IMG/VR virus record: IMGVR_UViG_3300025122_000006 | Reading direction: 5' to 3' (one strand) | From: a virus | Length of the DNA: 64,000 nucleotides | Shown here: positions 4,974 to 59,500 of the stretch, one piece after another | Numbering within the stretch: the stretch's first letter is position 1 | Layout of the letters: each line of letters opens with the position of its first letter | The notes under the pieces: model-generated | Database searches by the model: none | The model's input: only the letters and a program-made list of their open reading frames with translations | What the model was told of the DNA's origin: nothing | Translations under genes and position numbers: made by a program

Positions 4974-7900
4974 TTAACTAGTCGGAGGAGTGATATCCCA
5001 ATAATATAAAACAGCTCTTACAACACCCTGAGTTGCTGTACCTGCTGTTTCTATAACTAAATCCTGCGCAGCATTAATACCCGCAGTCGCGCCTCCGGCT
5101 GCAGAATACGGGCCAGCAGATGTTATAGCCATCGACAGCAAATCATTCAATTCATCGAGCACACCGTTATTAAGAGCACCGCCGGAAGCATCACCACCGG
5201 CAAAAAGATCATCTATGGTATCGGTTCCAATCTTAGTTATGTGGTGTCCAGCCGAGATTGCTGTTGTGACTCGAATTGATAGCGCGAGTGGCATTGCCAA
5301 GGCTGGGAAAAAATTGCTGGACGTGGTTGTTGTTCCGGAGGTTGATATGGTTATCGCCACCTCCTTGATCGTCAGGGTCATTGCGGCACCGCTCTTGCCC
5401 TCGGCCGTCATGATGCCGACACCGGCATCGTTGCGCATGTACAGATTAGTAGCTCCCGTGGCGCTGGCGTGATTGTTGACGATGAACATCAGGTTCCGGG
5501 TATCTGCCTCAGCTGAGTTGGAATCCAGCCCAATCATATTGCCGGTCGTCAGCCCGTCGCACTGGATATCTATGGCGCGAGCTGTGGTGACAGCATCAGC
5601 AACAATATCAATAACGTCAGCATCGATGTTGGCTGCTTCGATGGACATTGCAATTTGGTCTGTATCATCATTATCGATAAGGAAAGCAGTGTCGCCTCCG
5701 GCGGAGCCTTGTTCAATTTCTAGCAAAGCACCGGGGGATGAGGTACCAACTCCAACACGATCATTTGCTGCGTCGGTTCTTAGCAAACCGTTTATGTTTG
5801 TGCCTCGAACCATAAAATCAATGTCGGCATTGGATTGATTAACTTGAACGGTAGTGGATGTCCCCGCGGCAGCGTCATTTCCTCCAATATGTAAAGCTTC
5901 GGTCAAAGTAGTATTGTGGTCTCCTACTGTACTACCGGTGTGACACATTACATAAAACTTAAGCTCTCCTGCTTCGTCATTGGCAGTGACATCAGAAGCT
6001 CGCGCTAAGATTTTTGCATATTGAGTAGAATTGTCCCCTGCATCAACACCATAGAAATCAATTTGCCCCAAAGACATGTCGTCAGCCTCGGCTGTTGCGT
6101 CTGATCTATTAAATTTTAAGATTGCTGGCTTGTCTGTGGCAACATTCGAATTCCTCAATTCCAAGATGGCTTCTGTGTTGGCAGCAGTGTCTTGAAACAA
6201 AACTGTTGGGCGACCAGAAGCCATGGCGGCATCATTACGGACAGCCAAAGAGATGCATCCTGTTGCTTCAGCGTTCTCATTAACGATCACAGCGAGAGCA
6301 CGATTGTCCGTTGATGGACTGGTCGATTCAAGCCGCAGCATTTGCCCAGTAGTCAAGGCGGAGGAGGTGATGTTAACAATATAGCCTGTTGTTACAGCGG
6401 CGGCTGTGATGTCGAGAACGTTTGCATCGATGTTAGCCGCATTGATATCAACTGCAATTTGATCCGTGTCGTTGCTGTTGAGCTGGAGCAGGGGCACACC
6501 GCCGTCGTTGGCGTTGGTGACCTCAAGCGTGGCGGCGACTGCGTCCGTGCTGTCCCCGATGGAGATGCGATTGCTGCTGCCCTCGACGAACAGCATGTGG
6601 CTCTCGCCGCTGGTCTCCACCCTGAAGTCCACGTCACCACCGCCGTCGTTGATTGTCACTGCGTCCTGTGCCGCCTCAACGAAGTGCATCATCTCCAGCC
6701 CACCAGCCTCGATGTACAGTGCGTCGGGGGTGAAATTCAGGCGGGTGTTTGCGTCCCCTGTGTGCCCAACGTACTGTGCCACGGTGAGCGTCCCGGCTAT
6801 GTCGCAGGCGGTTCCCACGTACAGCTTCTTGGCGATGGACACACCCCCCTCGACCCTAAGAGCACCGGTATCACCAGAGTTGTCCGAGGCATCTGTCGTG
6901 TTAGTTATATCCACGACGCCGACGAAGGTGCTGGACAGATCATCGGAGATGGTCAGTGCGGTAGCCAGGGCGTTGAGGGATGATCCAGAGCCTCCCTCGT
7001 TTGCCGTCTGGAATACGATGTCTCCTCCGGCACCGGAGCCCTTGCCCTGTCCGCCTGCTAGCGTCAGGGATCCACCGGCTATATTGTTGGTAGTGCCTGC
7101 CGTGGTCGTCCCAGCCTGTATGACGACGGCTGTTCCTGCTGTATCATGAGCAGCAGCCGAAGTCGTGAGTTTATCGAGGGCGGTTATTGTAAGATCTCCG
7201 CTCGAGAAGGACGCGTCTGACAAGTCGTCCAGTGCCACCGAGGCCGTAACGGACAGAACAGTACCGGAGGTGAGCTGGATGTCGTCGCCGGCATCGGTCG
7301 TAAAGTAGAGTTGGTTCGGGGCAGCGTCCCTGACCCAGAGCTGGCCATATGCCGCGGTATCCGAGACAGCGGCCGACTGCTCCTTCATCGATACGGATGC
7401 AACGAATTTCGCCGATCCAGCGTTTGTTAGCCTAAGAGTCTCAGTGCCATCATCTTGCTGGAAAATAATATCCTTGGCATTAACATTTTGTTTAATAAGA
7501 AAGTCGCTAGAGCTATTTGTAAATGTTGCAATAGCAGTGCCTCCGTCTTTAAATATAATATCCGCCCCATCAGCGTCAAGAATGATATCGTTAGCAGCGT
7601 CCAATGTAATGTCAGCAGTCATTCCACTTGTAAGTATTATATCTCCGCTGCCGGCAGCAACGCCGGAGCCAGATATTTCTAAAGCACTACTGTTGTTCTT
7701 GAATGCTCCGATTAAAACACCGCCATCTTTAAATAGAATATCTGCACCATCAGCATCAAGAATGATGTCGTTAGCAGCGTCCAATGTAATGTCAGCAGTC
7801 ATTCCACTTGTAAGTATTATATCTCCGCTGCCGGCAGCAACGCCGGAGCCAGATATTTCTAAAGCACTACTGTTGTTCTTGAATGCTCCGATTAAAACAC

Positions 7901-10253
7901 CGCCATCTTTAAATAGAATATCTGCACCGTCGGCGTCTAAAACGATATCGCCGGCAGAGTCTAGTGTAATTGTGGTTGCATCAACCTCAAAAGTGCCGTC
8001 TGCTGTGATTTGAATGTTCGCTGCCGCAGCATCATCGTCAGTTGTCTCGATTGTGAATGCGCCATGTTGTGCCATGGTCATAACAACCTTATCACCAGTA
8101 TCTTGATCATCATGAATGGTTAATGTTGTATTATCAACATCAAAATCAAAAATAGTTAATGTACCGTCGTCCATTGTGATATTGCCACCATCAGCAGAAA
8201 GAATGATATCATTAGCAGAGTCTAATGTAATGTCAGCAGCCATGCCGCTTGTAATTATAATGTCTGCTCTCGTTCCCTCTGAGTTGGGAGAAGAGCCAGA
8301 TAATTCTAAAGCAGCACTGTTATTTTTGATTGCCCCGATTAAAACACCGCCATCTTTAAATAGAAGGTCATTTCCCTGGGCGTCTAAAATAATATCTCCG
8401 GCAGAGTCTAGTGTAATTGTGGTTGCATCAACCTCAAAAGTGCCGTCTGCTGTGATTTGAATGTTCGCTGCCGCAGCATCATCATCGGTTGTGATAATTG
8501 AAAATGCTCCGTGTTGAGCCATAGTCATAACAACTTTATCACCAGTATCTTGGTCATCATGAATGGTAAATCTTGTATTATCAACATCAAAATCAAAAAT
8601 AGTTAATGTACCATCATCCATTGTAACATTGCCACCGTCAGCAGAAAGAATGATATCATTAGCAGCGTCCAATGTAATGTCAGCAGTCATTCCACTTGTA
8701 AGTATTATATCTCCGCTGCCGGCAGCAACGCCGGAGCCAGATATTTCTAAAGCATTACTGCTGTTCTTTAATGCTCCAATTAAAACGCCACCATCTTTAA
8801 ATAGAACATCAGCGCCGTCGGCATCAAGAATGATATCGCCAGCAGCATCCAACGTAATATCAGCACCACAGTCAATAGTAAGATTGCCGCCATCAGCTAC
8901 AACAAAAGAGGTTACATCAACTGCTTCTTCGCCATTATCAGCTACAAGAGTGAGCACCGCTCCCGTGTCCTGCCCAGCCGTCAATGTAATCCCTGAACCA
9001 CTTACATACAAACTACCGGTAAGTTCATGACCGCTGACGCTGCTGAATTTTGCATATTGAGTTCCGCCATCTTTAAATGTGATATCCGCCCCATCAGCAT
9101 CGAGAATGATGTCCCCACCAGCATCAAGTAAAATATCCACGCCGGAAACTAAATTAATATCTGCACCATTGAAATGCTTCAGATCTGCTCCGTCGGAGTG
9201 AATGTAAGTACCTGACCCTCCAAATTCAATTTTCTTCGTTCCAGCCATCAATAATGAATTCGCGGAAGTGTCAAAACGAGCGATTTCAGTAGAAGTGTTA
9301 GCATGGAAGATTATATCTTTATTTGTAACTGACGATGAAAGAATTGCATCGCCACCGATTGATGCGGTCAAAACAAGAACATTTGTGCCGCCTCTACTGA
9401 AGGAAACGTCTCCTCCCTGTCCTGCTCCAAAATCAAGCTTCAGCTTACGAGAAGACACAATATCTAAATCGGTACCATCACCACCAATATATTCTCCAGT
9501 ATTTCCAAATTGAATTTTTTGGCTAGAAGCAACGAACGTTGTACCAGACAGGTTTATATTACCGCCATCAAATAATTGAAATACAGAAGTGGTTCCATCT
9601 AGTAAATCTAAAATTTTTCCGGTACCATCTTGTCTAACCGCTAAAGCAGGTTGAGTATTTGAGGTGTGGTCATCGTGGATGAAAGTCAGGGGAGCTGCAC
9701 CAGCTTCAGCGATATTTCTGGTAAATTTGGCAGCATAACCATTTGTAATATCTTGAGAGCAATAAAGTGGTCTATATCCTAAAATATAAACAGCCGGATG
9801 ACTGGTTGATTCAGAATCAATATAAAGAGCATTGTAGCCGCCAGTTTCATCAAAATCAATATTTATTCCTTTGATGTTCTCCGTATCAGCAACTCTTATG
9901 TCCAATTTGGTAGTTGGCTGGGTGCTTACAGATGAAGCAATTGCTACTTTTCCAACAAAAATGTGTGTATCGTCAGTTGTATCACCAAATTCGGTGGATC
10001 CCGTCGCTGAGATATTTGTTATAGTTTTGTTATGGTGATTAACATTGATTATATCAGCATTAATAGTGCCGCTAACAAACATGGCTCCCGTGAGAAACAA
10101 TTCAGAATTACAATGATCCCAAATTAAATTTCTACTGCCGGATAGCGTAGTGCCGCCCGTTGACCACTGTAGAGAGCCGGAGCAAGAGGTTCCGTGACCA
10201 CCTGATCCGCTTATAATATTTGATGGTACATATGCCCAGCCGAATTCTGCCAT
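4974..10253 (-). CDS. long tail fibre / receptor-binding protein with internal repeats
   Basis: 1759 aa, G/A/T/D/S-rich; repeated DIILDADGADILFKDGG units, DVDFRVE and RVGVGTSSP fibre motifs. Confidence 0.85.
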   Translation of the reverse strand: MAEFGWAYVPSNIISGSGGHGTSCSGSLQWSTGGTTLSGSRNLIWDHCNSELFLTGAMFVSGTINADIINVNHHNKTITNISATGSTEFGDTTDDTHIFVGKVAIASSVSTQPTTKLDIRVADTENIKGINIDFDETGGYNALYIDSESTSHPAVYILGYRPLYCSQDITNGYAAKFTRNIAEAGAAPLTFIHDDHTSNTQPALAVRQDGTGKILDLLDGTTSVFQLFDGGNINLSGTTFVASSQKIQFGNTGEYIGGDGTDLDIVSSRKLKLDFGAGQGGDVSFSRGGTNVLVLTASIGGDAILSSSVTNKDIIFHANTSTEIARFDTSANSLLMAGTKKIEFGGSGTYIHSDGADLKHFNGADINLVSGVDILLDAGGDIILDADGADITFKDGGTQYAKFSSVSGHELTGSLYVSGSGITLTAGQDTGAVLTLVADNGEEAVDVTSFVVADGGNLTIDCGADITLDAAGDIILDADGADVLFKDGGVLIGALKNSSNALEISGSGVAAGSGDIILTSGMTADITLDAANDIILSADGGNVTMDDGTLTIFDFDVDNTRFTIHDDQDTGDKVVMTMAQHGAFSIITTDDDAAAANIQITADGTFEVDATTITLDSAGDIILDAQGNDLLFKDGGVLIGAIKNNSAALELSGSSPNSEGTRADIIITSGMAADITLDSANDIILSADGGNITMDDGTLTIFDFDVDNTTLTIHDDQDTGDKVVMTMAQHGAFTIETTDDDAAAANIQITADGTFEVDATTITLDSAGDIVLDADGADILFKDGGVLIGAFKNNSSALEISGSGVAAGSGDIILTSGMTADITLDAANDIILDADGADILFKDGGVLIGAFKNNSSALEISGSGVAAGSGDIILTSGMTADITLDAANDIILDADGADIIFKDGGTAIATFTNSSSDFLIKQNVNAKDIIFQQDDGTETLRLTNAGSAKFVASVSMKEQSAAVSDTAAYGQLWVRDAAPNQLYFTTDAGDDIQLTSGTVLSVTASVALDDLSDASFSSGDLTITALDKLTTSAAAHDTAGTAVVIQAGTTTAGTTNNIAGGSLTLAGGQGKGSGAGGDIVFQTANEGGSGSSLNALATALTISDDLSSTFVGVVDITNTTDASDNSGDTGALRVEGGVSIAKKLYVGTACDIAGTLTVAQYVGHTGDANTRLNFTPDALYIEAGGLEMMHFVEAAQDAVTINDGGGDVDFRVETSGESHMLFVEGSSNRISIGDSTDAVAATLEVTNANDGGVPLLQLNSNDTDQIAVDINAANIDANVLDITAAAVTTGYIVNITSSALTTGQMLRLESTSPSTDNRALAVIVNENAEATGCISLAVRNDAAMASGRPTVLFQDTAANTEAILELRNSNVATDKPAILKFNRSDATAEADDMSLGQIDFYGVDAGDNSTQYAKILARASDVTANDEAGELKFYVMCHTGSTVGDHNTTLTEALHIGGNDAAAGTSTTVQVNQSNADIDFMVRGTNINGLLRTDAANDRVGVGTSSPGALLEIEQGSAGGDTAFLIDNDDTDQIAMSIEAANIDADVIDIVADAVTTARAIDIQCDGLTTGNMIGLDSNSAEADTRNLMFIVNNHASATGATNLYMRNDAGVGIMTAEGKSGAAMTLTIKEVAITISTSGTTTTSSNFFPALAMPLALSIRVTTAISAGHHITKIGTDTIDDLFAGGDASGGALNNGVLDELNDLLSMAITSAGPYSAAGGATAGINAAQDLVIETAGTATQGVVRAVLYYWDITPPTS
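7588..7928. repeat. 180-bp-period tandem duplication inside the fibre gene
   Basis: 7588-7748 is identical to 7768-7928; a third near-identical copy lies at about 8660-8800. Confidence 0.9.
7951..8670. repeat. 447-bp-period duplication inside the fibre gene
   Basis: The block from 7951 (ccggcagagtctagtgtaattgtggttgcatcaacc...) recurs at 8398; the protein repeat MDDGTLTIFDFDVDNT...TADGTFEVDATTITLDSAGD occurs twice. Confidence 0.85.
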
Positions 10254-12798: not shown

Positions 12799-13407
12799 TT
12801 AATCCCCCAAAATCTTTTTAAATAAATCATTGATACTATTCTCTTTAACCTCACGAAGGCGAGTCGTCATGGAACTTTGGCCACTTGGATAAACATATGC
12901 GTCTGGAGTCGAAGGCTCCGATACTATATCAAAGCAAATCAATTGAAAATCATTCTCAACAACAGTTTGTCCAGCGCTTTCTTTAACAGACCCCAAGCCT
13001 CTAGACGAAATACCAAGTTTAACTCCGGCATTAATAAGATCTTTAAGAATCCGGCCAGAAGGAGTATCGAGAACTTTGAGTTTACCCATCACATTTTTAC
13101 CTTCCCACCAAATATCAGTTGCAATGTGAGAAACATTTTTAAGATTAACAACAGAATCATCCGGGTGATCTAATTCTCCACACGCACGACTGTCTTTAAC
13201 AATCTTCATATAATTATCCATTTCTCTTTTAAGAACTTCATAGGGGTAAACACGACCATTCCCATTTTGTTTATCGGCGGTCTGAAGCTTTCCCGACAAA
13301 TAAAGAACGCCATTTTGCACTTCTCTTCTTTCTTTCTCGGACAGAAGATCTTGGCAAACACCGCCTTCACATAAGGCATAAAATTCTCGTAATAGTTTCT
13401 TTTTCAT
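12799..13407 (-). CDS. gp21: prohead core protease, T4 gp21 family
   Basis: NGNGRVYP, GELDHP, VSH, LDTPSG, GISSRGLGS, FDIVSEPSTPDA motifs. Confidence 0.95.
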   Translation of the reverse strand: MKKKLLREFYALCEGGVCQDLLSEKERREVQNGVLYLSGKLQTADKQNGNGRVYPYEVLKREMDNYMKIVKDSRACGELDHPDDSVVNLKNVSHIATDIWWEGKNVMGKLKVLDTPSGRILKDLINAGVKLGISSRGLGSVKESAGQTVVENDFQLICFDIVSEPSTPDAYVYPSGQSSMTTRLREVKENSINDLFKKILGD

Positions 13408-13408
13408 T

Positions 13409-13636
13409 TTATCCTTTACATGCGTCCAATCTATTGTTAATCGTGTCTATAATCATCATCTTCATACCCGGATCGGTGGAACGATCATTTTGGATTTCGG
13501 CTTTGAGCCATTCTCCATCTTCGATTAATTCATCGCAGGAATAATCATAAATTTCATCAACGGTATAACTTTCTTTCAAAGTTTTACCAAGTTCTTCTTT
13601 AATAAGTTGAATTAATTTTCTTTTTGTAATTTTCAT
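13409..13636 (-). CDS. leader-bearing small acidic protein (MKITKRKLIQLIKEEL)
   Basis: GAGG SD; shared N-terminal motif. Confidence 0.7.
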   Translation of the reverse strand: MKITKRKLIQLIKEELGKTLKESYTVDEIYDYSCDELIEDGEWLKAEIQNDRSTDPGMKMMIIDTINNRLDACKG

Positions 13637-21910: not shown

Positions 21911-22372
21911 CTAAAGCCCACCGTCTGAATCATCAGAAGGCGCTTGTCGTATTGGAATCAAAATAATCATTTTACGATCATAAGACATATACCAGAAATC
22001 ATCAGTCTGGAAGCCTCTGCCTTCTTTCCACCGTCTCTCTTTCAGAAAACCTACAATCTCATCTGCAACATCCAGAGGATAGTCAAGCTGTATCCATTCA
22101 CCCATTTGAGAAAATCTTAAAGGTTGTGGCATCTTTGTCGCTTGCATAAACAAATCCAAACCAAGTCGATTGAGTTTTTCGTTGCCTGGGGTTTTCAATA
22201 GAGCCTCGGCCATTTCAGGTGTTGGTTTTTCTTCCATCATGTCCAAGAGTTCAATCGCTTGATTAATATAGTTTTCGTCTCCTGATTGAAACATCGCAAG
22301 TAAATTATCCCTTTCTTCCTGCTCGAGAGCCTCGGTAATAAGTTTGGAGAGCTTTTGTTTTGTGAGTTTCAT
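21911..22372 (-). CDS. leader-bearing hypothetical protein (MKLTKQKLSKLITEAL)
   Basis: TAATG overlap; shared leader. Confidence 0.7.
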   Translation of the reverse strand: MKLTKQKLSKLITEALEQEERDNLLAMFQSGDENYINQAIELLDMMEEKPTPEMAEALLKTPGNEKLNRLGLDLFMQATKMPQPLRFSQMGEWIQLDYPLDVADEIVGFLKERRWKEGRGFQTDDFWYMSYDRKMIILIPIRQAPSDDSDGGL

Positions 22373-23034
22373 TACGCGCCCTTTAAAATAGGCGATCCTG
22401 GAGGTAGAACGAAATAGATACCTGCAGCGGCAAATGCACCTCTATCAAATGGTACTTGAACACCGTCGACGTCCATGCCGCCCGGGTACAAAGTAACAAG
22501 ACTCAAAACAGTTCTACCGTCTTCAAGAGAACCAATATTGGAAGTTACTAATGTGACTTCATCTGTTTCTTTCCTTTCACCGGGGGCAACTTTTACAACC
22601 TCTCCTCGGCCTCCGGGCATTTTATAATCTTGCAAACCAGCAACTTCTTGTGGAGTCCCAGCAGCCAGCCCCATTTTGCCAACTGGACCGGAAGGAGAAC
22701 TGATGCCTTCCCACTTAACCATGCCTCCGCCTGTTGAAGTTGGTTGTGTATTCATTATGGCTAAAATCAATTCTTTAACATTAACATTTGGATAAATTAA
22801 AGATCCGGGAGCGTTAGCGTCTTGATGACGATCTTTAATATGGCTCATTCCTTCTTCACTAGCATACAGAAGGACTTTGTCGCTAATTGGTATTAAGTCT
22901 CCTTCATTAACTTGTGTGCCTTTAAGCCACTGATTTCCATCAACCATGGCTTGAACTTGTCCTAAAGCACCTTGTTCATTTTCATACATTGCTTCTTTGA
23001 TTAATTTATATAGTTTTTGTTTTGTAAGCCTCAT
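22372..23034 (-). CDS. leader-bearing protein with putative RNase toxin-like domain
   Basis: MRLTKQKLYKLIKEAM leader; GMSHIKDRH...GS... and LVTLYP motifs resemble polymorphic-toxin RNase domains. Confidence 0.55.
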   Translation of the reverse strand: MRLTKQKLYKLIKEAMYENEQGALGQVQAMVDGNQWLKGTQVNEGDLIPISDKVLLYASEEGMSHIKDRHQDANAPGSLIYPNVNVKELILAIMNTQPTSTGGGMVKWEGISSPSGPVGKMGLAAGTPQEVAGLQDYKMPGGRGEVVKVAPGERKETDEVTLVTSNIGSLEDGRTVLSLVTLYPGGMDVDGVQVPFDRGAFAAAGIYFVLPPGSPILKGA

Positions 23035-23445
23035 TTATTTGTCTCCTGGGGTCATTATTATAATACCGAACTCCTCGGCAAGGATGCGATCAATCTTTTC
23101 GGGGTCTTCTTTATTGGCCTCAACTAACAGACGAACGCGTTCTGCTTTTAATAGTTCCGCATGATTCATGGATTCGTTAGCCGTTTTATTAGCAATTTCC
23201 AAAGCGCGAATGTACTTGCTATTGGCTGCTTTTTGCAGCTTGCCTTTCTTGTTTGCTGCGGCTTCAACGGCTTCAATTTCTTTCTGGTATAGCTCGTTTG
23301 CCATTTGTAATTGGGTCTTATAGGCTTTGACTTTGCCTCGCCCAACTACATAGGAAATAATAAGAAGTGCTGCCACCACCAGCATTCGCCAGTGATGGAA
23401 GCACCATAACTTTATCTTTTTCCACGCGAGTTTCATTATCCCCAC
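23035..23445 (-). CDS. membrane-anchored coiled-coil protein, i-spanin (Rz)-like
   Basis: N-terminal TM segment WRMLVVAALLIISYVVG followed by an Ala/Lys/Glu coiled coil. Confidence 0.5.
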   Translation of the reverse strand: MGIMKLAWKKIKLWCFHHWRMLVVAALLIISYVVGRGKVKAYKTQLQMANELYQKEIEAVEAAANKKGKLQKAANSKYIRALEIANKTANESMNHAELLKAERVRLLVEANKEDPEKIDRILAEEFGIIIMTPGDK

Positions 23446-41274: not shown

Positions 41275-42302
41275 TAATCACAATCCTCCAAGTCTCCAGG
41301 TCTTACTCTACTAGAATAAATATCAAACCGTTCAGTTCTTTCCTCGGGACAAATAAGTTCTTCATCTAAAAATTGATTATTAATTTCTAATTTATTAATA
41401 ACTTCACAAAGTTCCTCGGCGGGGATTTCATCATCGACTTGTATATTGAAATAATATTCAACTTGATCTTGAGGCAATTCTACTCCCTCTTGGTCGGCAA
41501 TTAGTCCTGGAAAAAGATCATTGTAATCTCCTTCAAGAACCAACAAATCATTAACTATCGCTTGCTGTTGCTTAACGAATTTTAAAGGAAACAATATTTC
41601 TTTACTTTCGCCATTATTATAACTACCGGACTTAACCATAAAAACTTCAATTTCAAAATTTTCTTTTTCGTAAAAAGAGTTAAATTCTTTTAAATGAATA
41701 ATTGGGGTTTCGAATTCCAATTTATTGTATGTGCCGTCTTTTGCAACTGTAGAAGTAAAAGCATACTTTTCAGAAGGATTAACTAATTGGCTTTCTGTCG
41801 TTTTTGATACCAAAAATTCATATTCTATTTGTGGAATTTGTAAAGAATCTAGCACTTGCCCTTTACTGGATGAAAGAAAATTTACGCTGCTACTTATTTC
41901 ACCCTGTAACATTGTAACCTGAAAAGCCGGAGTTTTATCCGAGGAATAAGATGATCTGCCTAATGCATAAATTCCTTTTTGATTTGGAGATATTTCTTGT
42001 AATTCGCCTCTAATTTCATTAATATTTAAATTTACCGAGCCAGTTTGTCCGTAATCAAATTCAGAATCTGTCTGTATACCTCTTTTCAAATATAATGTTT
42101 TAAGTTTCGGTGTTTGATTCATAATTCTATCATGAGAATCTTCTTGTGCTTCAACCGAATTGCTTGAAGAAATGTCATAAATAATATCATCATCAACAAA
42201 TTCATAAAACTTTGGTTTAAATTTTCCAATAGATAGGAGATAACGACCATATGGTGTCAGCTTTATGTCCATTACATCTGTTTTTTTATTGAAAAAAGTC
42301 AT
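41274..42302 (-). CDS. baseplate/tail structural protein
   Basis: N-terminal DIKLTPYGRYLLSIG...FVDDDIIYD resembles the start of 35029..35967. Confidence 0.65.
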   Translation of the reverse strand: MTFFNKKTDVMDIKLTPYGRYLLSIGKFKPKFYEFVDDDIIYDISSSNSVEAQEDSHDRIMNQTPKLKTLYLKRGIQTDSEFDYGQTGSVNLNINEIRGELQEISPNQKGIYALGRSSYSSDKTPAFQVTMLQGEISSSVNFLSSSKGQVLDSLQIPQIEYEFLVSKTTESQLVNPSEKYAFTSTVAKDGTYNKLEFETPIIHLKEFNSFYEKENFEIEVFMVKSGSYNNGESKEILFPLKFVKQQQAIVNDLLVLEGDYNDLFPGLIADQEGVELPQDQVEYYFNIQVDDEIPAEELCEVINKLEINNQFLDEELICPEERTERFDIYSSRVRPGDLEDCD

Positions 42303-45300
42303 CTCTCATTCCAGTTGCCGGGGTTCCACCAGCTCAAACAATCTCTGATATCTTTCTCATCGGTTTCTACCCAGCGATTTACTGCTGAAGTCTTGGCTCT
42401 TGTTCTTGCGGTGATCGCATTGACTGCACAGGCTGCAGCCCCGCGGCCAGGACAGCACCCCCATTTGAACTCGTCACACTCCCTGCGATACATCGATTTG
42501 GCGTAAGCCTTAATCTCATCGCAGGTCGGCCCGGCAGTCGGCTCAGTTGGAACCTCCAGGAAGCCTGCATTATCAACCCAGGATTGGTAATAAGCCTCTA
42601 TTTCATTCAAGACCGATGGGGTGATCTCCCATTCTCTGTAATTTGCTTCCATTTCCTCTATAGCGTATCCCTTCTGCAAATTGGCGTTCACTTCGGTGTA
42701 CGAACCCATGTTCATCACATTCACCAGGAACCTCTCTCTAAAGAAGGCAAAAGGACCCATGCCAGTCAATAAAGTTGCAGGGGCGCCGGATGGCGCTCCG
42801 GTCATGCCTGCAACCAAGACCGGCTCATGCTCCGGTGGTTCCACCGTAGCCGCCGGAGGAGGTTCTAAGATGTCAACGAGTTCCCTATTTGTATATTCGA
42901 TTCCGGCCTCGCTGGCTGCAATGGAATTTACTTTAGGCATAATTTCTTCAAAATCACTAAAGTCAGCATTAACCCACTCTATCTCAGCATCAATTGAAGC
43001 CAATTCAACAAGAGAGAAATAATCATAAGGCCAATTAAATTGAACATCTGTGGTGCTACCAAATTCGTCAACAGTAACTTTCCCGAGACGTCGTCCACCA
43101 GTTTCAGAAATACCGGCAGCATTTCTAGAAATAACTTTTTGAAAATAATTAGATGCTGCTCTTTTCTTAGCTTTAAATACCATCCATCTTAATTCTTTAG
43201 GATATTCATGCGGTGTATTGTTGCCATCATGACCACCACCTAACAATTCTTTAAAAAGAAGCGGATGAGTAATTTGTACAGTTGCCTCTTCTAAAGTCCG
43301 TCCGATTTTTGGAGGAAGATTTTGCCAAATATCCGCAAGATCTTGTTGATCAAGCCTGTGAGTAAATTCAAAAATATACATTGCAATAGGTTCTACAGTT
43401 TCATTGTGTACAAAATCAAAGGATGGTGGGAGAATATATTTTTCCATTCTTTTAATTTGCATTTTTACCGAAAGTCCTATTTTTGATTCCTCTGGATTTT
43501 TTAAATACTTTCTGACTGAATCGGGATCTAATTTGAAAAACTTTTTTGTTCCTTGTTCGACGGTAAATGGAATAGCAACAACAGCCTCCGAAATTATCTT
43601 TGAGTCCGCGGTTCGTCCGAGTTTAACGGGTTCTTTGGAAAAGCCGCAAACTTCTGCAAGATCTCCAACATCCGGGCGGACGGGCAAGGGCTCCGCGGTT
43701 TGTCCAATGCCTTGAAAGGTGGCTTCGCGCCAGGTGTCAGGAATGGGGCCAACTTGTAGGAATACGCCTTCATTGACCTCCGGAATTTTACCATATTGAT
43801 GCCACATTCCTCTGGCAGCCGAGGCTGATCCTACAATTGGAAGAGTAAGATTACCATTTTTTGCTGATATATGATTAAAATTTAACATTGGTGTTTCAAA
43901 TTTCGTTTGTATAATCCAACGATTTTCCTCTTCTGTTGCAGTATTAACAACGACATTAACTTCTTGAGCTGTTTCATCATCAAGAAGATCAATTGATTTT
44001 AGTGCCCCTTTCCCAAATGGATTAATCGATCCTGATAATTGCACGGCATTTCTATTTATTCTGTTCTGACCCCAAGCTTGAGGTCCGGTGGTGGTCCACA
44101 GATCAAGACTACCACGAGCCTTCGTGTGCCCGGCGACCTCGAAGAAACCAGCCGAAGCAGTGAGATGATAATCCATATTATTTAAATAAAAAGTGCTATC
44201 AAATCTTGTATAACTAGACGAAACCTGTGCAAATTGTAATATTTCTTCCAAAGATACTTTACCATCGACAGACCCGGTGTAATAAATATCTAACCAAGCC
44301 TGGCCATGATAATAAGGTGGAGTATATGGAAAATTGTATCCATATCGATAATCCTTCCACATGTATTGTCTGCCAGCAGCGTCACCGTTGCCTCGATCAA
44401 CTCGGAATGTATGCATTCGTGTACTTTCTGGATTATAAAAGTTCAATTGCACAGCACCGATTCTTCGCAAGTTCTTGCCCAACAATTCGGTTTCTCCTAG
44501 AGAATTCGGTCCAAAGGCACTTGGGCGAGAATACATCGTGAAAGTTTCTCTATAACTGTTATTAGCTATATCTTGTGGCACTTCATAAATAGTACCAACG
44601 GCGCCGGTAACATTTGTAGCAGAACCAGTCATGGAACGATACATTTTAATTCTCATTCCGTAGACGGCACCTTTTCGAACATTACCAAAATTAGGATTTC
44701 CTTGCGGTAATGAAGAAATGTTAGTAAAATTTTGATCCTTTAAGAAAAATTCAGGTATCTCCGCCATAAAATTATGAGCCATCATTTTATAAATTTCATC
44801 GCCGGCGCCATTCCATATAGCTGAAGCTGTGATATTCCCACTTGCGTGTACTTCCAAATTTGCAATAGGAACATTGGTCAAATACGCCTCTGGTTCCAGC
44901 AACGCTTCAAAAGGAACTCTACCAGTAAAATCTTCTGTTATTACGTTTGTCCACGGTTTTTTATCCGCGCTGGCGAAGCCGCCAGCGCCGTCATCGAAAT
45001 CGTCTTCATAAGGAAGCTGCCTGGCGTCCTCAAAGTGTCCACCGATGGCTCCGCTGTGATTCACACTGGCTGTGATATAAGGAAAGTCAACAGCAATGCC
45101 GGACTTGATAGAATTGAAAAGAACTCCGGGAGCAAACAAGGTTCCAAAAAGGCCTTGTTTTGCTCCGTCGAGTTGAATGTCCGGGAGACCCCTTGGCAGC
45201 ACTCCCTGACGGAGGCCCAGCTGTTCGCCAAAAAAGGTGAGCGGCTTTATATTACGAAAATAACTCCTTGCAAATTGCTCCGATAGCTGGACTGTTCTTT

Positions 45301-47278
45301 GGCAAGGATAAAAACCATCATATGGCAATAATTTTTTGATTGCTCGGCATCTTAATGTTAAAACTTTTGAGTCTGCGAAATCATCATGATCATTTTCAAT
45401 AATGTCAAAATGTTTCATAAAGTCTGAATTGGAATATGTTTTGTAAAAGTTCTCGTGCGAAGATCTATTGTTGCCCTTTACCCCGCCGGTGATCTCAAAT
45501 AATTCTTGAGAAAAATATATAGAACCGGTATTCATAATATCTGCAACATGCTCGCTCATCCTAAACTCAGGCAAAACAGAATAGCTTTGCCCTTTCAATC
45601 TTATATTTTCTGCAAATGCAGCATATGAATCATAAAACGGCGTTTTACCAGCTTGTATGTGTGCTTCCCAAAGAGCCTCTCCCTGTCCAAAATCAGACTG
45701 GAGATATGACTTAGTTGCTGGGCCACCTGATCCTGTTTCCGGGATTTCCATACCCGAAGGATTTGAAACAGATTGTGTGTTGTGGTAAGTATGTCTAAAA
45801 GCATATTGGGGCGCACAGCCGTGAGTAGAATCGGCAATGGAGATGCCATTGGCCTTAAAGGGTTCAACATGTCCTGTTGGAAACTTTTCGGAAAAATCAC
45901 AGTCTTTAAAAAGAGTCGTATGTACCATTGAATATAATTGGCAATAATTATTTTGCAAAACCCCAGGTGCTTTATAATTAATCCCCCCTCGGTTCTTAGT
46001 GTAGACGACTGTGTAGCCGCTGGTGGCCTCACCGGGATCCCGAGCTGACTGTCCTAAAAATGGAAATCTCCTATAATCACCAAAACCATCCTCTGGCTGG
46101 AGACTCGATGCTGATCTCGCCATCCCAAAACCAAAATCATCCTGTGCTCCCTGTGCAGAACTACTAGCGGCTACCCTAGGGTTTAGGCTCCCTGTCCTGG
46201 TCAAAAAATTCTCAGATGCGTCTAGCGGCCAAGAAGACGCAACCAATCGAGCTTCGGCGCCAGCACTGGGCGTGGCACTGAATAGCCCTCCCTCTCGCAT
46301 CCACCATACCGAATGTCTTCCAAAGCCATCCCCTTGTCCAAAAGAATGCCTTTGCGGGTAGCGGTCATGATCACTAAGTCTGTCCGGTCGATTAACTCTA
46401 AAGAAAGATTTGAACTCCGGCCTACTTCTTATCGCGTTTCTATACATATTTTTAGATAAAGGATAGACAGTTTCTCGGTATTTTAAAAATTCCCAATGTG
46501 TAAATGGACTATCTGGTTCTTCTAAATTTCCATTTAAATAAAATGTTTTAATAAGATTATACTCGGAATCTTTATGATCCATAACAATATTGTGTAAAGT
46601 ATTTACTTCATCATTAGCAAAAGCATTTAAATTATTCCCGAATGATGTAAGAACAGAAAATCTGTCTAGCTCTTGAGTTGAGCCTTGTTTAAAATGTCTC
46701 CCAACATTCCAAACTAAAGGATAGCTGTTTCTAACAACAGCCGGTTCTTTGAAATTATAAAGTTTAGAATATCTTTCTAAAGCCAGTTTTGTCCCGCTGC
46801 CAGAAGGGGAAACATCGATAAGTTGGCCAGGCTGCGTAACAAATGTTAAATTGCTATTTCTATTGTGAAATCGCGATACGGGATTATCTGCTGTTCTGAT
46901 TTGTTTCCAAGTACAATGTCCATATGGGCCATTTCTATGAAGGTTAAGAGAAACAAGGATATCAGGGATTTCATGGGGAACGGGGATGCTCATGTCGAAG
47001 CCGAAGGGACCAACCGTCGTGGACTTGGGGAGGTGAGCCACACTAATGTTTAAATATCTCTTGATATGTCCCCCTTGCGATGGGAGTAGTCCTGACAAGC
47101 CTCCTGCGAGGTCTCCTGATGGGATCACCAGATCCTCTGGGGGGATATTTCGAGGCTGATCTTGCCCGTTCAATTGCGGGGCGAAACCAATAGTATTAAT
47201 ACTAGCGCTGATTGGGTCTGAAATTAATGTATTCATTCCCACAAAATCAACAAAAACACCTTTTTTAAAAGTAGCCAT
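42299..47278 (-). CDS. large baseplate/tail structural protein with Cys-rich C-terminal extension
   Basis: 1659 aa in the tail operon; TGS/SGS-rich. Confidence 0.65.
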   Translation of the reverse strand: MATFKKGVFVDFVGMNTLISDPISASINTIGFAPQLNGQDQPRNIPPEDLVIPSGDLAGGLSGLLPSQGGHIKRYLNISVAHLPKSTTVGPFGFDMSIPVPHEIPDILVSLNLHRNGPYGHCTWKQIRTADNPVSRFHNRNSNLTFVTQPGQLIDVSPSGSGTKLALERYSKLYNFKEPAVVRNSYPLVWNVGRHFKQGSTQELDRFSVLTSFGNNLNAFANDEVNTLHNIVMDHKDSEYNLIKTFYLNGNLEEPDSPFTHWEFLKYRETVYPLSKNMYRNAIRSRPEFKSFFRVNRPDRLSDHDRYPQRHSFGQGDGFGRHSVWWMREGGLFSATPSAGAEARLVASSWPLDASENFLTRTGSLNPRVAASSSAQGAQDDFGFGMARSASSLQPEDGFGDYRRFPFLGQSARDPGEATSGYTVVYTKNRGGINYKAPGVLQNNYCQLYSMVHTTLFKDCDFSEKFPTGHVEPFKANGISIADSTHGCAPQYAFRHTYHNTQSVSNPSGMEIPETGSGGPATKSYLQSDFGQGEALWEAHIQAGKTPFYDSYAAFAENIRLKGQSYSVLPEFRMSEHVADIMNTGSIYFSQELFEITGGVKGNNRSSHENFYKTYSNSDFMKHFDIIENDHDDFADSKVLTLRCRAIKKLLPYDGFYPCQRTVQLSEQFARSYFRNIKPLTFFGEQLGLRQGVLPRGLPDIQLDGAKQGLFGTLFAPGVLFNSIKSGIAVDFPYITASVNHSGAIGGHFEDARQLPYEDDFDDGAGGFASADKKPWTNVITEDFTGRVPFEALLEPEAYLTNVPIANLEVHASGNITASAIWNGAGDEIYKMMAHNFMAEIPEFFLKDQNFTNISSLPQGNPNFGNVRKGAVYGMRIKMYRSMTGSATNVTGAVGTIYEVPQDIANNSYRETFTMYSRPSAFGPNSLGETELLGKNLRRIGAVQLNFYNPESTRMHTFRVDRGNGDAAGRQYMWKDYRYGYNFPYTPPYYHGQAWLDIYYTGSVDGKVSLEEILQFAQVSSSYTRFDSTFYLNNMDYHLTASAGFFEVAGHTKARGSLDLWTTTGPQAWGQNRINRNAVQLSGSINPFGKGALKSIDLLDDETAQEVNVVVNTATEEENRWIIQTKFETPMLNFNHISAKNGNLTLPIVGSASAARGMWHQYGKIPEVNEGVFLQVGPIPDTWREATFQGIGQTAEPLPVRPDVGDLAEVCGFSKEPVKLGRTADSKIISEAVVAIPFTVEQGTKKFFKLDPDSVRKYLKNPEESKIGLSVKMQIKRMEKYILPPSFDFVHNETVEPIAMYIFEFTHRLDQQDLADIWQNLPPKIGRTLEEATVQITHPLLFKELLGGGHDGNNTPHEYPKELRWMVFKAKKRAASNYFQKVISRNAAGISETGGRRLGKVTVDEFGSTTDVQFNWPYDYFSLVELASIDAEIEWVNADFSDFEEIMPKVNSIAASEAGIEYTNRELVDILEPPPAATVEPPEHEPVLVAGMTGAPSGAPATLLTGMGPFAFFRERFLVNVMNMGSYTEVNANLQKGYAIEEMEANYREWEITPSVLNEIEAYYQSWVDNAGFLEVPTEPTAGPTCDEIKAYAKSMYRRECDEFKWGCCPGRGAAACAVNAITARTRAKTSAVNRWVETDEKDIRDCLSWWNPGNWNER

Positions 47279-47280
47279 AA

Positions 47281-50200
47281 TTATATCCCTGTTATGTATC
47301 CATAAATAGTTGAAGCGGCTGGAAAATTAATTGCATTAATAGAAGACGTAACTCCTGTTGCATTCGATGCCGAATGTAATAATCCATTTGGCGGTGAATA
47401 ACCAAGTAGTACTTGATCGTTTCTCCAATTTTTTTGTAAAACTGAATCGGGAACATGTGCCGGGTTCTTTGCTTGATCGTGTGGTGTTTTGCCTGTTCCG
47501 TATGAAATTGTTGCCCCAGATAAAGCTGATCTAATCCAACTATATTGAAAATCGCTTCTAGGTATCGGTGATGATATATATCCATTATCAAACCTACTAC
47601 CGGTCACCACAGCATTACCACCTGCTTTTGGGTCGTTGATCGGGTCGACGCCATATTGCATGCGCCTTGATATGTTTCTATGCTGCTTTACAAAAGAACC
47701 AGATGTGACTGATGACGACAAAGAGTGGATTACACCATAATCCAAGTCTCTTCCAAATTTGCCCATATGAGATGCCAGGACGGATTGCAATCCCCGCTGT
47801 TTGCCCAAGTGATCCGATACTCTTATAGTTGCTCGGGTTTGATGTTCCAACGCGCCGTAATCCAGAACCTTCCCTTTAGGTTCTCCGCTACTTGACATTC
47901 TTACAGTTAAGTTTCTAAACGGAAGAGCGTTATGAACTGAATAAGTGTGCCTCTGCACATCTAGATAACCCATTGATTGAACCTCTGGTCCTCCAGGTGC
48001 TGAAAATCGGCTACATATTTCATATGTCGATTTTGTTAAATTCGTTTTAGGAATTTCAATTACAATATCGTTTGAATATGTTGTTAGGCGCAGATTAGTG
48101 GGGCTGGCAGGGGCTCTATACCACGGGGTTTGGTATTTCAGGGATTTAACATCTGGTTGTCGGTTGTTGTTCGCAACACCAAACACATTGCCTGAAAGAA
48201 ACGGTGCTTGTCCGACAAGTGTCATGTAATTTGTGGTCAGTGGCAGCGACTTTTTTATAGATGTTGGCAAATCTAAATTAGAAGCGGAAGCAATTCGATA
48301 CCATCTTCTTTGATCTCCTTTCTGAAGGGTGACAATTTCGTAGCCCTTCCTGTAATTGCCCATGATAGCCGAGCCTGAACTGTGGCGGATATTTCTTACA
48401 TTTAAAGGACGCTTTGCATATTCATCTCTAAATTTGGTTGCCCTTGCTTTATCAACATTGGGGTATATTTTACCACCATAATCCGCAGATACATATCCCA
48501 TTGCTCCGTCGGCTCGATAAGGAATGGGACCTGTCCAGTTGGTAAGCTCGCCTGGGACTAAGCCCCAAGCCTCTGGCCTATTTCTGGCACTGTCAAGCTT
48601 TTGTATGCCCCCGAGAGGAGCTTTGTCGGGGTCATACTTATTTATTCCAACGTGTCTAGATTGTTGTCCTCCAACATGCGTTCTTGTGAACGGACCTTGC
48701 ATTGGAATTTCGTTCGTGTGATCGGTTGTATCGGAGTGTATATTAGTTACAATTACGTGATTTTTAAAATATGTATTAATATATCGATTGTATCCTGTAT
48801 TTACGGTGCCGCTGACCAAAGTCATTGGCACTATAAGATCGCCTTTTAATGCATGCTTGTAATCGTCACCAAATCGATTTCCTACTTTTGCAATAAAATT
48901 AAGTTTTATCTTTTCATTTGGATTTTTAACATCATTGCAAATATTTGATTGTTGTATGCTGTGCCCCAGTCCTTCGCCAATAACTATAACATTTTTTGGT
49001 ATTTTAAGAAAAGCGAAACTACCAGTCTCAAGAGATCCATGCGGCAATATTGCATCTTTAAAGGCCATTACGTTTTTATCACGAGCATAATTAATGCCGC
49101 CGTGTATTGACCTTCTTGGGGCGGACATTTCAAACCTGTAAGGTTTGGATAATTTTCTTATTGTATAGGTTGAGCCATAATATATAGTACTTCCGCTCAC
49201 CCTCCGAAGTGAATGAGATTGAAGAGAGTGGTTGTTTTTCACAATTCTTAAAGTTTCTGCTGTATTTGTCTCACCTTTTTTTCGATCTGCTTGCCAAAGG
49301 CAATTGTGTGATGACCCGCCGCTGACAGGAGCATGACCAAATTGCCAATCATAAAGTAACTCTTGAATTCCCTTCACAGACCCTTCGGTAGAAGTCCTTC
49401 TTCCAAGGATTCCTATCTTATTGACATATTTGTTTCTTTCTAAAACATGACTCTCTACTACATTTTTAATTCCCTTAGAGAATCTCGAAGATGCTGGATA
49501 TAATTGCTCGAGCGCTATAGAAATAGAATCGTCAATCCATTTATAAAATGATGTAAATTTATCCAAATTAGGAGTATTTTCAACATCTTCAAAGAAACGT
49601 TCCTTCAGAAAAGATAACAAACTATAATCATGATGATAACGTTGATTTGGTTGCCCTATTAGATTATTGAAATCCAAAGCAGTAGAAAACATATTTAACA
49701 TTTCATCGGAAATAACACCATGTAAACTTTTTTCAAAAGAATAGAAATTATCAGAAACATCCTCATCAACAAAGAAATTCTCACTTCTATCATCTTTTAT
49801 TACAACAAGATCGGAAGAGAATAGATCATCTGGTTGCTTTTTTCTAGCTGTATATATGAAATTTTTATCTATTGAATTGGTGCTCGAAGCCCTAAAACCT
49901 GTTGCTTTTCCTTCATTGTTTTTTAGAACTATACCATTATAAATTCCATAACTAGAAGTTATATGAGAATTGGCTGATCCTGATGACAAATCATTTATTA
50001 TTAACTCCCCAGAAGGAGTTGATCCGGTCTTGTTAAAGAATGCCCAATGTAAAGCTAATGTTTTTTGTCTAGGTATTTCTTGACCGTCATTTAAGAAAAT
50101 TGTATCGCTTTCAAATGGCTCATTCGCACCAAACGTTTCTGAATCATAAGCGTGTTGGTTAATTGCTTCATTTGATAAATAACTACTCCAATAACGAACG

Positions 50201-56567: not shown

Positions 56568-59500
56568 TTAAAACAAATCTTTCAATGGATTAGTACATTC
56601 CTCTCCATTTGCATCATAAGGGTTTGCTATAATTCTTCTTCTTTGTAATAAAGGAATTTTTGGTATCAAATTTGCTAAAGACATTTCATCAAAAGGGTTG
56701 TCAACTTCAAGGCGACCGTCTGAATCTTCTCGATCTGGATGTAATCCATCAGAGTCATTAGATAAATAGAGGCCTGCGAATTGTCTTCTTAGCATCCTCT
56801 TAGCTCTTTTATTATAAACTCCGTCACTCTCGTCTTCAGGGTCGGCGGGGTCTATTGCGTCAATGTCTCTCTCTATGAACTCAGTAGGATCATCTGACGT
56901 GCCGAAGCCTAAAGCAAAGGGCCAATTGTGCATGCAATAAATCGCAGCCATAGAAGAAATCATGCTTGTAGAAAAAACTTTATCAAACATCAAGGTATAA
57001 ATTGGATTAGCTTGAACCTTGCTAACCATACAAGCTAAATCATAACTTTTGAGAGGATCAAAAGTGTCTAGGTTCTGATCAATTACCAAAATTTCCTCTG
57101 AAACCAGTGGGAGTATTAAATTGCCATCGTTAAACATTAGAGCCTTAGAAGCTTTGGATTTTCTTGTTAATTCAGAAGTAGAATCAATATTATATTTGCC
57201 TTTTGGAGGGATGATACTTATTCTTATACCGTAATATACCCCGGTATCACCAACTACACCAGCAGGACTCAATTCTTCATTAACATCTAAATTCTTTTTA
57301 GATATTAAAATAGTAAAGCCAGGTGGATCTCTGCCCAATAAATATTTTTGATGAAAACCAACAATTTCTTCTTCAAGATCAGGATTCAATGTAATAAATT
57401 CTTGCAGCATTCTATCATTAATAAAAGCTCTCTTGCTTGTTGATTTTTTTTCATAAAAACTCTTTATATTTTTCTTATAGACAAATTCTAGATCACCAAA
57501 ACAATCTGATAATCTAAAATCCCCTAAGCCTTCTTGACTTAGACTTGCTTTAAATTCGTTAAATTTTTCCGGAGAAATAATCCCCCTATACTCGTCAAGC
57601 CTGTTTAAAATAAAATCCGGAACAGGCTTATAAGATCCGTCTAGCTGGATCTTACTAGGGGGACCCTCCCTTAATCTAATATATTTCTCAACTATAAATG
57701 TGGCCTTAGAAGCATCAGGTACATCAAAAGACATATTGTTTTCCGAGACACTAGGAATATTACCAGGGTCGCCGTCATTTTCATGACTTGCTAGTCCAAT
57801 TCTAGAATTTGACATAGGAAATATTTTTTCCATACCAAGTAAATATTTTTTCGCATCGGAAATTGTTGGTGCCACAGACATTTCACCTGAAAATCTATCA
57901 GACAATATTCTTATTTCCGACTTCATCATCTCCGACAAAATCAAAATACACTCTCTTTCTACTATTCTTATGGCCAATATTTTTGTAAAAAATCTCAATT
58001 TTTTTAATCTAAATCTTTTTTTGCGCCTAATTTTCACCTCATCCTCAGCTTTAAACATATTATCTCCATATATTCTAAAAGCGGCGGCGGCATGATAAAA
58101 ATATGAAATATCTGTTATGTCATCAGGGTGCATTTCTGCTCCGGGACATCGAAAAGTGTAGTCTACGTTTAAAAATTTTCTTTTTAATTTTCTAGTTGGA
58201 TATACATAGTTTTTTTGAACCTGGTATATGATATCCAACGCCGATTGAATTTCGATTGGTGGTTTCAGCCCATCAACATCTATCATCCTCTGATAGGCCT
58301 GAACAGTCTGTTCTAAAAAAGTATACCAGTAATTTGATCTTTTTATTCTTATGCGACGGCTGGATCTTGCGGATCCTAGTCCGGTCATGGTTTCTTTCAT
58401 CTTATTTACCATATACGTCGTACAAGCTAAATCATAATTATTTTCAGAAAACTTGAGGTTGGTAAAAATTCCTAAGCCTAATAAAAAATATTCTGCTGCA
58501 TATGTGCGTAAAGTCGTTCTAACCACGCCATCTAAAGAAGCATGCGTTTTAGAATGTAGTAAGTGGTTGAACGGCCTAATAGAAATACAATCAGGGTCTT
58601 CAGCTAATCGCGAATCTTCTTGTAATCCATTCTTTAATTTATTAACTCTTTGTCCTATATCCTTAAATGCAAGAGCACCAGGGGTCTTAGGTTCACAGCC
58701 CTCATAGCCACCAAATAAAACTTGAGAAGTATCTAGCCAGCCAGTATAAGTCAAAGGCTTGATATGTATTGGCGGTCTTCTATAAGTACCTCCGTATACT
58801 TCGGGATCCAGAACCACGATCCTAGAATTGTTATATACTCCTAATATTTTTTCAGCGTTTCGTAAATTATATTCAGCTTTTCCATCCGGATTATAATAAA
58901 CAAAGTCATCTTCTATTAAGCTATCGGGCTTATAACCAAATCGAAAGCCATATGGAATATCATTATCCGGATCAATAAAAACACTATCTTTTACTGATTT
59001 AGTGAATTCTTCGATGGTAGAATCAAACAAAGATTTATAATCTTGAGAGCCAATTAAATCCGAATAATTATAATTTAAAAATTTATCAAACACATATTGC
59101 CTCATATTATTTTCCTTGTCCACACCATAGTTGATATTGATAGCGCTTAATACACCCACTTGTTCATCAGAAAGCTCTATTGGTATAATTGAGGAATAAT
59201 CTGCTTCATATGAAGGGTCGTCTTTACTAATATTTTCGGTCACAGATGAATAATAATCGAAATAACCAGGATTAACAGAATGATAAGTAACATTTGAATA
59301 AGATTCGTAATAAACCCTATTTCTTTTTGGCAAAATATCTTTATTATCTTTCTGATCATTGACAAATCTTAAAAATATATTATGTTCTTTGTTTCCGTCG
59401 TTCTTACTAACAGCTTCTTCAGTCAATATTTCATCTATACGAAATCCTGGGCTATATGGTTCAGACTTTATTTTTTCTGTAGAAAATCCAGCGCTAGATT

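Follow-up and report, generated by a model that had tools for sequence, protein, structure and literature searches.

A leader-tagged RNase A-like protein as a candidate capsid cargo of an uncultured marine T4-type phage

Introduction

IMG/VR virus record IMGVR_UViG_3300025122_000006 is represented by a stretch of 64,000 nucleotides, referred to here as the window, from an uncultured marine phage to which T4 is a distant relative. At 22372..23034 on its minus strand lies an open reading frame (ORF) for a protein of 220 amino acids (aa) that raises two linked questions: what chemistry might be performed by its body, which looks like that of a ribonuclease (RNase), and to what destination would it be taken by its N-terminal leader, which is found on other genes of the window as well? 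The explanation favoured here, which as a whole chain falls just short of an even chance, is that this is an internal protein, targeted to the capsid and processed by a protease, and that its body is a new ribonuclease of the BECR/RNase A-like type.

Motif conservation and predicted fold

Behind the leader, an initial annotation had picked out GMSHIKDRH, a PGS tripeptide and a late LVTLYPG, and had read them as the marks of a His-dependent RNase domain. The leader and the three motifs are all present, and are conserved over 79 non-redundant full-length homologous domains, the set to which the conservation counts given here refer. GMSHIKDRH occupies residues 62-70 and LVTLYPG residues 179-185. 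The core of the former, H65-I-K-D-R69-H70 (22825..22842, minus strand), lies at the end of a predicted helix and holds a candidate general base, as indicated by its conservation and by a parallel with the toxin CdiA-CT(Ykris) described below. H65 and H70 are each kept in 75 of the 79 domains and R69 in 65; the histidines on which the RNase reading leaned are thus a conserved property of the family. In the P76-G77-S78 loop (22801..22809, minus), P76 is kept in 75 domains and G77 and S78 in every one, and the spacing of the loop is the same in a STAND-NTPase fusion, P0139. The third motif, T181-L-Y183-P184 (22483..22494, minus), contains a candidate catalytic or substrate-stacking pair, to which both conservation and structural alignment point. 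Thr is found at position 181 in 75 domains and Ser in three more (78/79), an aromatic residue at 183 in all 79, and P184 in 77. Further conserved positions are K107 (69/79), W108 (77), E145 (71), K148 (72), T157 (77) and R198 (77). Judged from the aligned sequences, this conservation exceeds chance.

An AlphaFold2 (AF2) model built from the family alignment has a mean predicted local distance difference test (pLDDT) score of 90.8 and a predicted template modelling (pTM) score of 0.81. Residues 1-20 form a less confident helix, with a pLDDT of 72 for residues 1-10 and of 62 for residues 11-20. The conserved domain spans residues ~22-214 (22393..22971, minus), beginning where the leaderless homologues begin. 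In the modelled body, a helix at residues 60-69 is followed by an elaborated, mostly antiparallel sheet, the long strand 175-184 of which carries both T181 and Y183. This is in keeping with the BECR fold, in which an N-terminal helix packs against an antiparallel sheet of four or five strands.

The model was compared with 48,161 PDB representatives using VIA-align, and the 50 best matches were tallied by entry title. At the top of the list is MafB2-CT (8hhj_B; Z 6.8, root-mean-square deviation 3.8, 89/101 residues aligned), and YxiD-CTD (9v8i_B; Z 6.7, 95/107 aligned) and CdiA-CT(Ykris) (5e3e_B; Z 5.8, 95/114 aligned) are the other two of the best three toxin matches, which cover 83-89% of the toxin chain. 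Later matches include BrnT, several CdiA-CT tRNases, colicin D, RelE/ParE/HigB/YoeB and vertebrate members of the RNase A family. Overall, RNase-type toxins (BECR, RelE/ParE and RNase A chains) make up about 37 of the best 50. A control search with a model of the product of the neighbouring gene, 21911..22372, returned a heterogeneous list with no enrichment for RNase toxins. Two apicomplexan structural-genomics proteins (PDB 2pd0 and 4fbd; Z 6.7 and 5.5) align over ~140 residues, which exceeds the coverage of any RNase toxin; these are proteins of uncharacterised role that add no functional information, and they were set aside as functional guides. The enrichment of RNase toxins among the matches to the predicted structure is striking, and it supports the assignment of the modelled body to the BECR/RNase A-like toxin fold. 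As the Z scores are only 5.8-6.8, the resemblance is one of fold, and homology is not proven.

Comparison of candidate active-site residues

MafB2-CT, YxiD and CdiA-CT(Ykris) were identified experimentally as RNases, with RNase A-like or BECR folds (PMC9970974, PMC12700104, PMC5435912). The activity of CdiA-CT(Ykris) requires His175, Arg186, Thr276 and Tyr278; across its family, His175 and Thr276 never vary, and Phe is frequently found in place of Tyr278 (PMC5435912). The mutagenesis primers in that study translate to L-I-D-R-His175-V-G and I-I-Thr276-G-Tyr278-P. The phage protein reads I-K-D-R-His70-Q and L-V-Thr181-L-Tyr183-P, with a like alternation of Tyr and Phe at position 183. At the end of the VIA alignment, model residue 186 corresponds to residue 281 of 5e3e_B, which places T181 and Y183 on Thr276 and Tyr278, as reckoned from the ends of the aligned ranges rather than from a residue-level superposition. 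The start of the same alignment puts His175 no more than three residues from H65 or H70, so that its counterpart may be either of the two.

A His in the N-terminal helix together with a Ser or Thr in the last strand is found in PBECR and many other BECR RNases (PMC5512222), and the AF2 model places H65 and H70 within helix 60-69 or at its end, and T181 in strand 175-184. EndoU-like enzymes have two catalytic His and a Ser or Thr on the terminal strand, on a duplicated BECR core (bioRxiv 10.64898/2026.08.28.747851). Two conserved His and T181 are present in the phage protein, and its domain is of a size that could accommodate a duplicated core; the alignment with the EndoU toxin 5hkq is weak, at Z 2.4 only. 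At the level of modelled fold and motif, then, the reading of the body as an RNase is supported.

The leader and the head protease

The leader or address peptide, MRLTKQKLYKLIKE, comprises residues 1-14 (22993..23034, minus) and ends in I-K-E. The protein has no other strict [L/I]-x-E site; none is observed in the body, where 1.5 would be expected, a depletion that is not significant. Seven ORFs of the window start with the same amphipathic leader of ~14 residues, and in all seven [I/V]-x-E is found at residues 12-14. The T4 protease gp21 cuts after L/I-x-E, which is how the internal proteins of T4 lose their 10-residue capsid targeting sequence (PMC9026906, PMC3012670). A T4 gp21-type prohead protease is encoded in the window at 12799..13407 (minus; Pfam Peptidase_S77, E 1.8e-32; PHROG head maturation protease), and Peptidase_S77 is present in four of five related phage records with tagged homologues, including both of the complete ones. 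A leader-tagged ORF of 75 aa is located at 13409..13636 (minus), directly upstream of the protease gene. In T4, the small prohead-core genes 67 and 68 sit just upstream of the protease gene, a position like that of the 75-aa ORF.

The strongest new evidence on the leader, drawn from the sequences of homologues, is the swapping of tags. Homologues of the same domain carry at least five tag types, MKLTKxxLxxIIKEE, MKLIxENWRxYLxEE, MKYLKVFENLEE, MSKSLKKLLIESIDG and the ..MQKLAGLITESE type, which likewise contain [L/I]-x-E. In eight of the ten lineages examined, the tag of the homologue is that of neighbouring genes on the same contig. Tags are also not confined to the N-terminus. The homologues P0005, P0041, P0044, P0047, P0049, P0052 and P0053 have a C-terminal ..RWQ[K/R]LAG[I/L]IKG with [I/L]-x-E within ~15 residues before it, and by analogy with the C-terminal processing of T4 Alt this may be a C-terminal address peptide. 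The QKLAG motif is N-terminal or internal in P0035, P0037, P0039 and P0040, and in some homologues a tag lies between two bodies inside one true ORF. A BLAST search of the 23-aa leader against 50,697 phage records gave no match, the query probably being too short.

Capsid delivery, meaning packaging, cleavage of the leader and ejection, is well motivated by comparison, and the course of events that we infer is this. Residues 1-14 would act as an amphipathic address peptide that docks the precursor into the prohead core, where the gp21-type (S77) protease would cut after I-K-E14 and remove the leader. The mature body would be a metal-independent endoribonuclease, using His65 and/or His70 from the helix and Thr181 and Tyr183 from the long strand. 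Ejected with the DNA, the cargo would cleave host RNA, or RNA-based components of defence, as infection begins.

A broader proposal can be made tentatively, as something possible rather than probable: that many uncultured marine T4-type phages share a modular tag-and-cargo system, with at least five interchangeable, lineage-specific address peptides (N-terminal, C-terminal or internal), each bounded by a head-protease site, and an RNase A-like effector that is injected with the DNA and cuts host RNA or RNA-based defence before phage gene expression. The lineage-specific tags would mean that the effector is re-addressed each time it moves between lineages. If this is correct, the effector may be strung into cleavable polyproteins, and the arrangement would be the natural equivalent of the engineered construct in which a nuclease is fused to the T4 capsid targeting sequence.

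Distribution and domain contexts of the family

A word-indexed search returned 27 close homologues, none of them named and none with a Pfam domain. An exhaustive profile search of 1.84 billion representative proteins with a hidden Markov model (HMM) found only 117 representative clusters, 59 of them at E <= 1e-30. The domain occurs once in the window, in 22372..23034, and for this protein Pfam and PHROGs give nothing significant. Weak matches to PBECR3 (PF18812), a phage BECR nuclease family, were obtained for 10 of 26 members scanned singly, with a best E of 0.012. In a related phage genome, a PBECR3 match of 11.7 bits, below the 30-bit cut-off, covers profile positions 22-60, which is the His-motif region. 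PF18431 (RNAse_A_bac) gave no match at E up to 5 in the 26 members or in the protein itself, and among the same members there was no Pfam match to the EndoU-like family (PF14436). The best named feature cluster in the ESM Atlas is PF18431 RNAse_A_bac (0.91, 173 shared features), which the tool flags as a lead only.

The initial annotation had placed the domain among those at the tips of the polymorphic toxins CdiA, Rhs and MuF. That link found no support: none of the 117 representatives, nor any protein in a search of long proteins, is a fusion of the domain to CdiA, Rhs or MuF proteins, and the layout typical of polymorphic toxins such as CdiA, Rhs, MafB, LXG and MuF, in which a toxin domain at the C-terminal tip of a large delivery protein is followed by a cognate immunity gene, was found in neither set. 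What survives of the toxin-RNase reading is the BECR/RNase A-like fold, the conserved His and Thr-x-aromatic-Pro, the weak PBECR3 matches and the PF18431 lead.

The long forms that do exist are of other kinds. A 755-aa protein carries HAD_SAK_1 and a 494-aa protein an HD domain, fusion partners of RNA-repair type that suggest RNA-end chemistry. In two proteins of ~1510 aa, transmembrane segments and a STAND NTPase are combined with the domain at the extreme C-terminus. For one of these, the 1510-aa P0139, hhalign gives a probability of 93.5% and an E of 2.4e-7, with both His, the PGS loop and S-x-Y-P aligned. A C-terminal place on a STAND NTPase is where an effector is typically found, and the 1510-aa protein may be a defence-type NTPase that uses the same effector domain. 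The genes for these proteins are located in marine metagenome contigs (L005:3728-8260 and L006:3576-8108) and are followed by a TM2-domain gene.

Leaderless homologues of 192-211 aa are found in same-strand gene arrays, repeatedly followed by a gene for a HAD-like protein of ~109 aa (L003, L004 and L031). MetH, AdoHcy hydrolase, thioredoxin, a GMP-reductase-like gene and DnaE are encoded nearby. The DnaE on a contig of this kind shares 45% identity with the one from LR756508.1, an uncultured phage of 484 kb; the idea that the leaderless homologues are cellular was dropped for this reason, and the contigs are probably those of huge phages carrying metabolic genes. In GTDB genomes, two pattern scans aimed at the leaderless form turned up no relatives, a result that is limited by the patterns and is not proof of absence.

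The adjacent leader-tagged gene

Downstream of the RNase-like gene lies a second leader-tagged gene (21911..22372, minus), which encodes 153 aa and had been put forward as a possible partner or inhibitor of the RNase. The comparison of related contigs does not bear this out. The 153-aa protein has only two homologue clusters among 5.8 billion proteins, and in both clusters whose contigs were read, one of them being the window, the gene is found directly downstream of the RNase-like gene. It is missing in all eight contigs displayed that have a 94.5%-identical RNase-like gene (11 similar places exist beyond those displayed), and thus from most close relatives. In the window, the stop codon of the RNase-like gene overlaps the start of the 153-aa gene as TAATG; in contigs without the neighbour, the same TAATG junction runs straight into the next conserved gene.

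Where a counterpart is present, it has diverged on its own. L036:1324-1788 is 64% identical to 21911..22372, whereas identity on the same contig is 99.5% for the RNase-like gene and 98% and 91% for the genes flanking it. This divergence suggests, on the sequences compared, local hypervariability or cassette replacement, and the gene has the look of an accessory, fast-diverging cassette. At L008:759-2200, in a contig ~94% identical at the RNase-like gene, two genes with the other tag type (MKLIMEKFKRFLKE and MKLIMESWKSFLNE) are inserted at the exact site of the neighbour. Thus two tag types coexist in one phage, and the junction is an insertion hotspot. The model of the 153-aa protein (pLDDT 78) gave heterogeneous matches only, at Z <= 5, with nothing immunity-like among them. 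Being dispensable and independently diverging, the neighbour is not a cognate immunity protein or inhibitor.

Genomic setting

The ATG of the RNase-like gene directly abuts the TAA stop of an upstream gene for a membrane/spanin-like protein of 136 aa, and is preceded at a distance of 7 nucleotides by the Shine-Dalgarno sequence AGGAGA (23042..23047, minus). The long ORFs of the window are on a single strand throughout. They encode a T4-type terminase, gp20 portal, gp21-type protease, gp23 capsid protein, gp25 baseplate protein, a primase and an Mre11/Rad50-like protein; in Pfam, the T4-type head genes match Gp23 at E 2.6e-76 and Portal_T4 at E 6.6e-77. The gp23 capsid protein is 39-47% identical to those of the nearest phage records, which are an uncultured 484-kb phage, Flavobacterium phage immuto, Microcystis phage Mel-JY01 and Rhodothermus phage RM378. 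Homologues of the RNase-like protein originate in Tara and other marine metagenomes.

Four very large ORFs are located on the minus strand, at 4974..10253 (1759 aa), 42299..47278 (1659 aa), 47281..52761 (1826 aa) and 56568..63782 (2404 aa). A Pfam scan of the latter three matched the 1826-aa ORF to Laminin_G_3 only and gave no match for the other two. The four are probably tail, baseplate or fibre proteins.

Alternative explanations

Several results weigh against the explanation favoured here. Foldseek, a check proposed with the initial annotation, returned nothing at E <= 0.001 from PDB or BFVD. In the VIA-align search, no structural match reaches Z 8, and at Z <= 6.8 single matches are not trustworthy. 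The family HMM profile has zero matches at E <= 10 among all PDB sequences. No Pfam family scores above threshold for the protein or for the 26 members, which makes this an undescribed family, and the output of the ESM Atlas itself cautions that its family name could be mistaken. The mature protein, of ~21.6 kDa, is acidic, with an isoelectric point (pI) of 4.67, in contrast to the basic RNA-binding faces of the RNase toxins that it matches. A tblastn search of the 50,697 phage records (INPHARED) left the RNase-like protein unmatched, so that no cultured phage with the gene was found there. The existence of leaderless homologues means that packaging is not intrinsic to the domain. Finally, as there is no immunity gene, a potent RNase would have to be either tolerated late in infection or held inactive as a precursor, and the favoured explanation does not account for this.

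Some of these results would be accommodated if the enzyme worked unpackaged in the infected cell, as does T4 RegB, an early enzyme that is not packaged, and if the leader served assembly, localisation or translational coupling. The leaderless homologues in huge-phage-like contigs fit such a role, as does the location of the gene between the Mre11/Rad50-like gene and the terminase, amid non-structural genes. Scans for promoters, terminators and T4 late promoters gave counts no higher than those in shuffled sequence, and so provide no above-chance signal tying the gene to the late genes. This account is nevertheless unlikely, as the tag follows phage lineage and matches that of neighbouring tagged genes, its final residues form the cleavage motif of a protease encoded by these phages, and a tagged 75-aa ORF occupies the T4 prohead-core gene position directly upstream of that protease. 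It is likewise improbable that the cargo is packaged and has another chemistry, acting as a phosphodiesterase on nucleotide second messengers or RNA ends, or as an RNA- or protein-binding inhibitor on a BECR scaffold. The HD and HAD_SAK_1 fusions, the leaderless copies beside a HAD-like gene and the acidity of the mature protein would suit such activities; moreover, not all members of the BECR fold are RNases, ParE being one that is not, and Z <= 6.8 speaks for shape only. Set against this are the two near-invariant His, the Thr and the aromatic residue at the catalytic places of RNase A-like toxins, and the effector position of the domain on the STAND NTPase. That the leader is instead a recognition sequence for a modifying enzyme, in the manner of ribosomally synthesised and post-translationally modified peptides and with, for example, a radical-SAM partner, seems very unlikely: Radical_SAM is found neither in five related phage records, of which two are complete, nor among the genes scanned in the window, which spans about half of the genome, and S77 proteases are present in four of the five. 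Least credible is that the two genes form a toxin-immunity pair, with 21911..22372 serving to neutralise the RNase in the cell that makes it. The TAATG overlap and the directly downstream position in both clusters read (one being the window) are what would be seen in such a pair. They are outweighed by the absence of the neighbour from the eight displayed contigs, its two clusters among 5.8 billion proteins, its 64% identity beside 99.5% for the RNase-like gene and 98% and 91% for the flanks, its own leader, and a fold search without an immunity-like match.

Comparison with known systems

A capsid-targeted RNase would have its closest counterparts in T4 IPI, IPII, IPIII and Alt. There, as here, a short N-terminal peptide ending in L/I-x-E is common to unrelated, fast-evolving proteins, and a gp21-type S77 protease is encoded. 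The 14-residue tag of the window presumably differs in sequence from the T4 tag. Where the T4 cargo is an ADP-ribosyltransferase or a restriction inhibitor, the cargo here is RNase-like, and its packaging is proposed by comparison; a further difference is that the same cargo is found with different N- or C-terminal tags across phage lineages. T4 Alt provides a precedent for enzymatic cargo (PMC9026906, PMC3012670).

PBECR domains are phage BECR RNases of MuF, portal and polyvalent proteins, and also exist as solo versions in phages (Iyer et al. 2017, PMC5512222; for MuF toxins, PMC5576092). The family described here resembles them in its weak PBECR3 matches. It differs in that these matches are below the Pfam threshold, in the lack of MuF, portal or polyvalent fusions among the 117 representatives and in its larger domain of ~190 residues. 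In addition, its delivery would rely on a cleavable tag rather than on fusion to a head protein.

The best structural matches are with CdiA-CT(Ykris) (PF18431, 5E3E) and with MafB2-CT and YxiD (Ntox50; 8HHJ and 9V8I). The D-R-H and T-x-[Y/F]-P motifs of the phage protein resemble the sequence around His175, Thr276 and Tyr278 of CdiA-CT(Ykris), and in both families the Thr is conserved and the Tyr often Phe. Unlike these RNase A-like toxins, to which there is no HMM-level similarity, the phage protein carries another conserved His five residues further upstream, as well as additional strands and a C-terminal helix-strand. It is also acidic, is not located at the tip of a secreted toxin and has no cognate immunity gene. 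T4 RegB is a BECR-fold RNase of a T4-type phage that acts on mRNA (PMC5512222). No sequence or structural match to RegB was seen in this analysis.

To our knowledge, little is known of the head contents of T4-type phages beyond IPI and Alt. The cargo described here offers a predicted chemistry that is recognisable and easily assayed, with H65, H70, T181 and Y183 as catalytic candidates, and the natural tag swaps define the address peptide. If the explanation is correct, T4-type phages deliver RNase effectors by means of cleavable capsid-targeting tags rather than MuF-type fusions, an uncatalogued family is added to the BECR/RNase A-like nucleases, and there is a direct handle on the co-evolution of address peptides and head proteases.

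Phage BECR RNases delivered by the virion have already been published for MuF and polyvalent proteins (PMC5512222, PMC5576092), and delivery by a capsid targeting sequence is classical for T4. What is new here is the combination of these two ideas, together with an undescribed family and the swapping of its tags.

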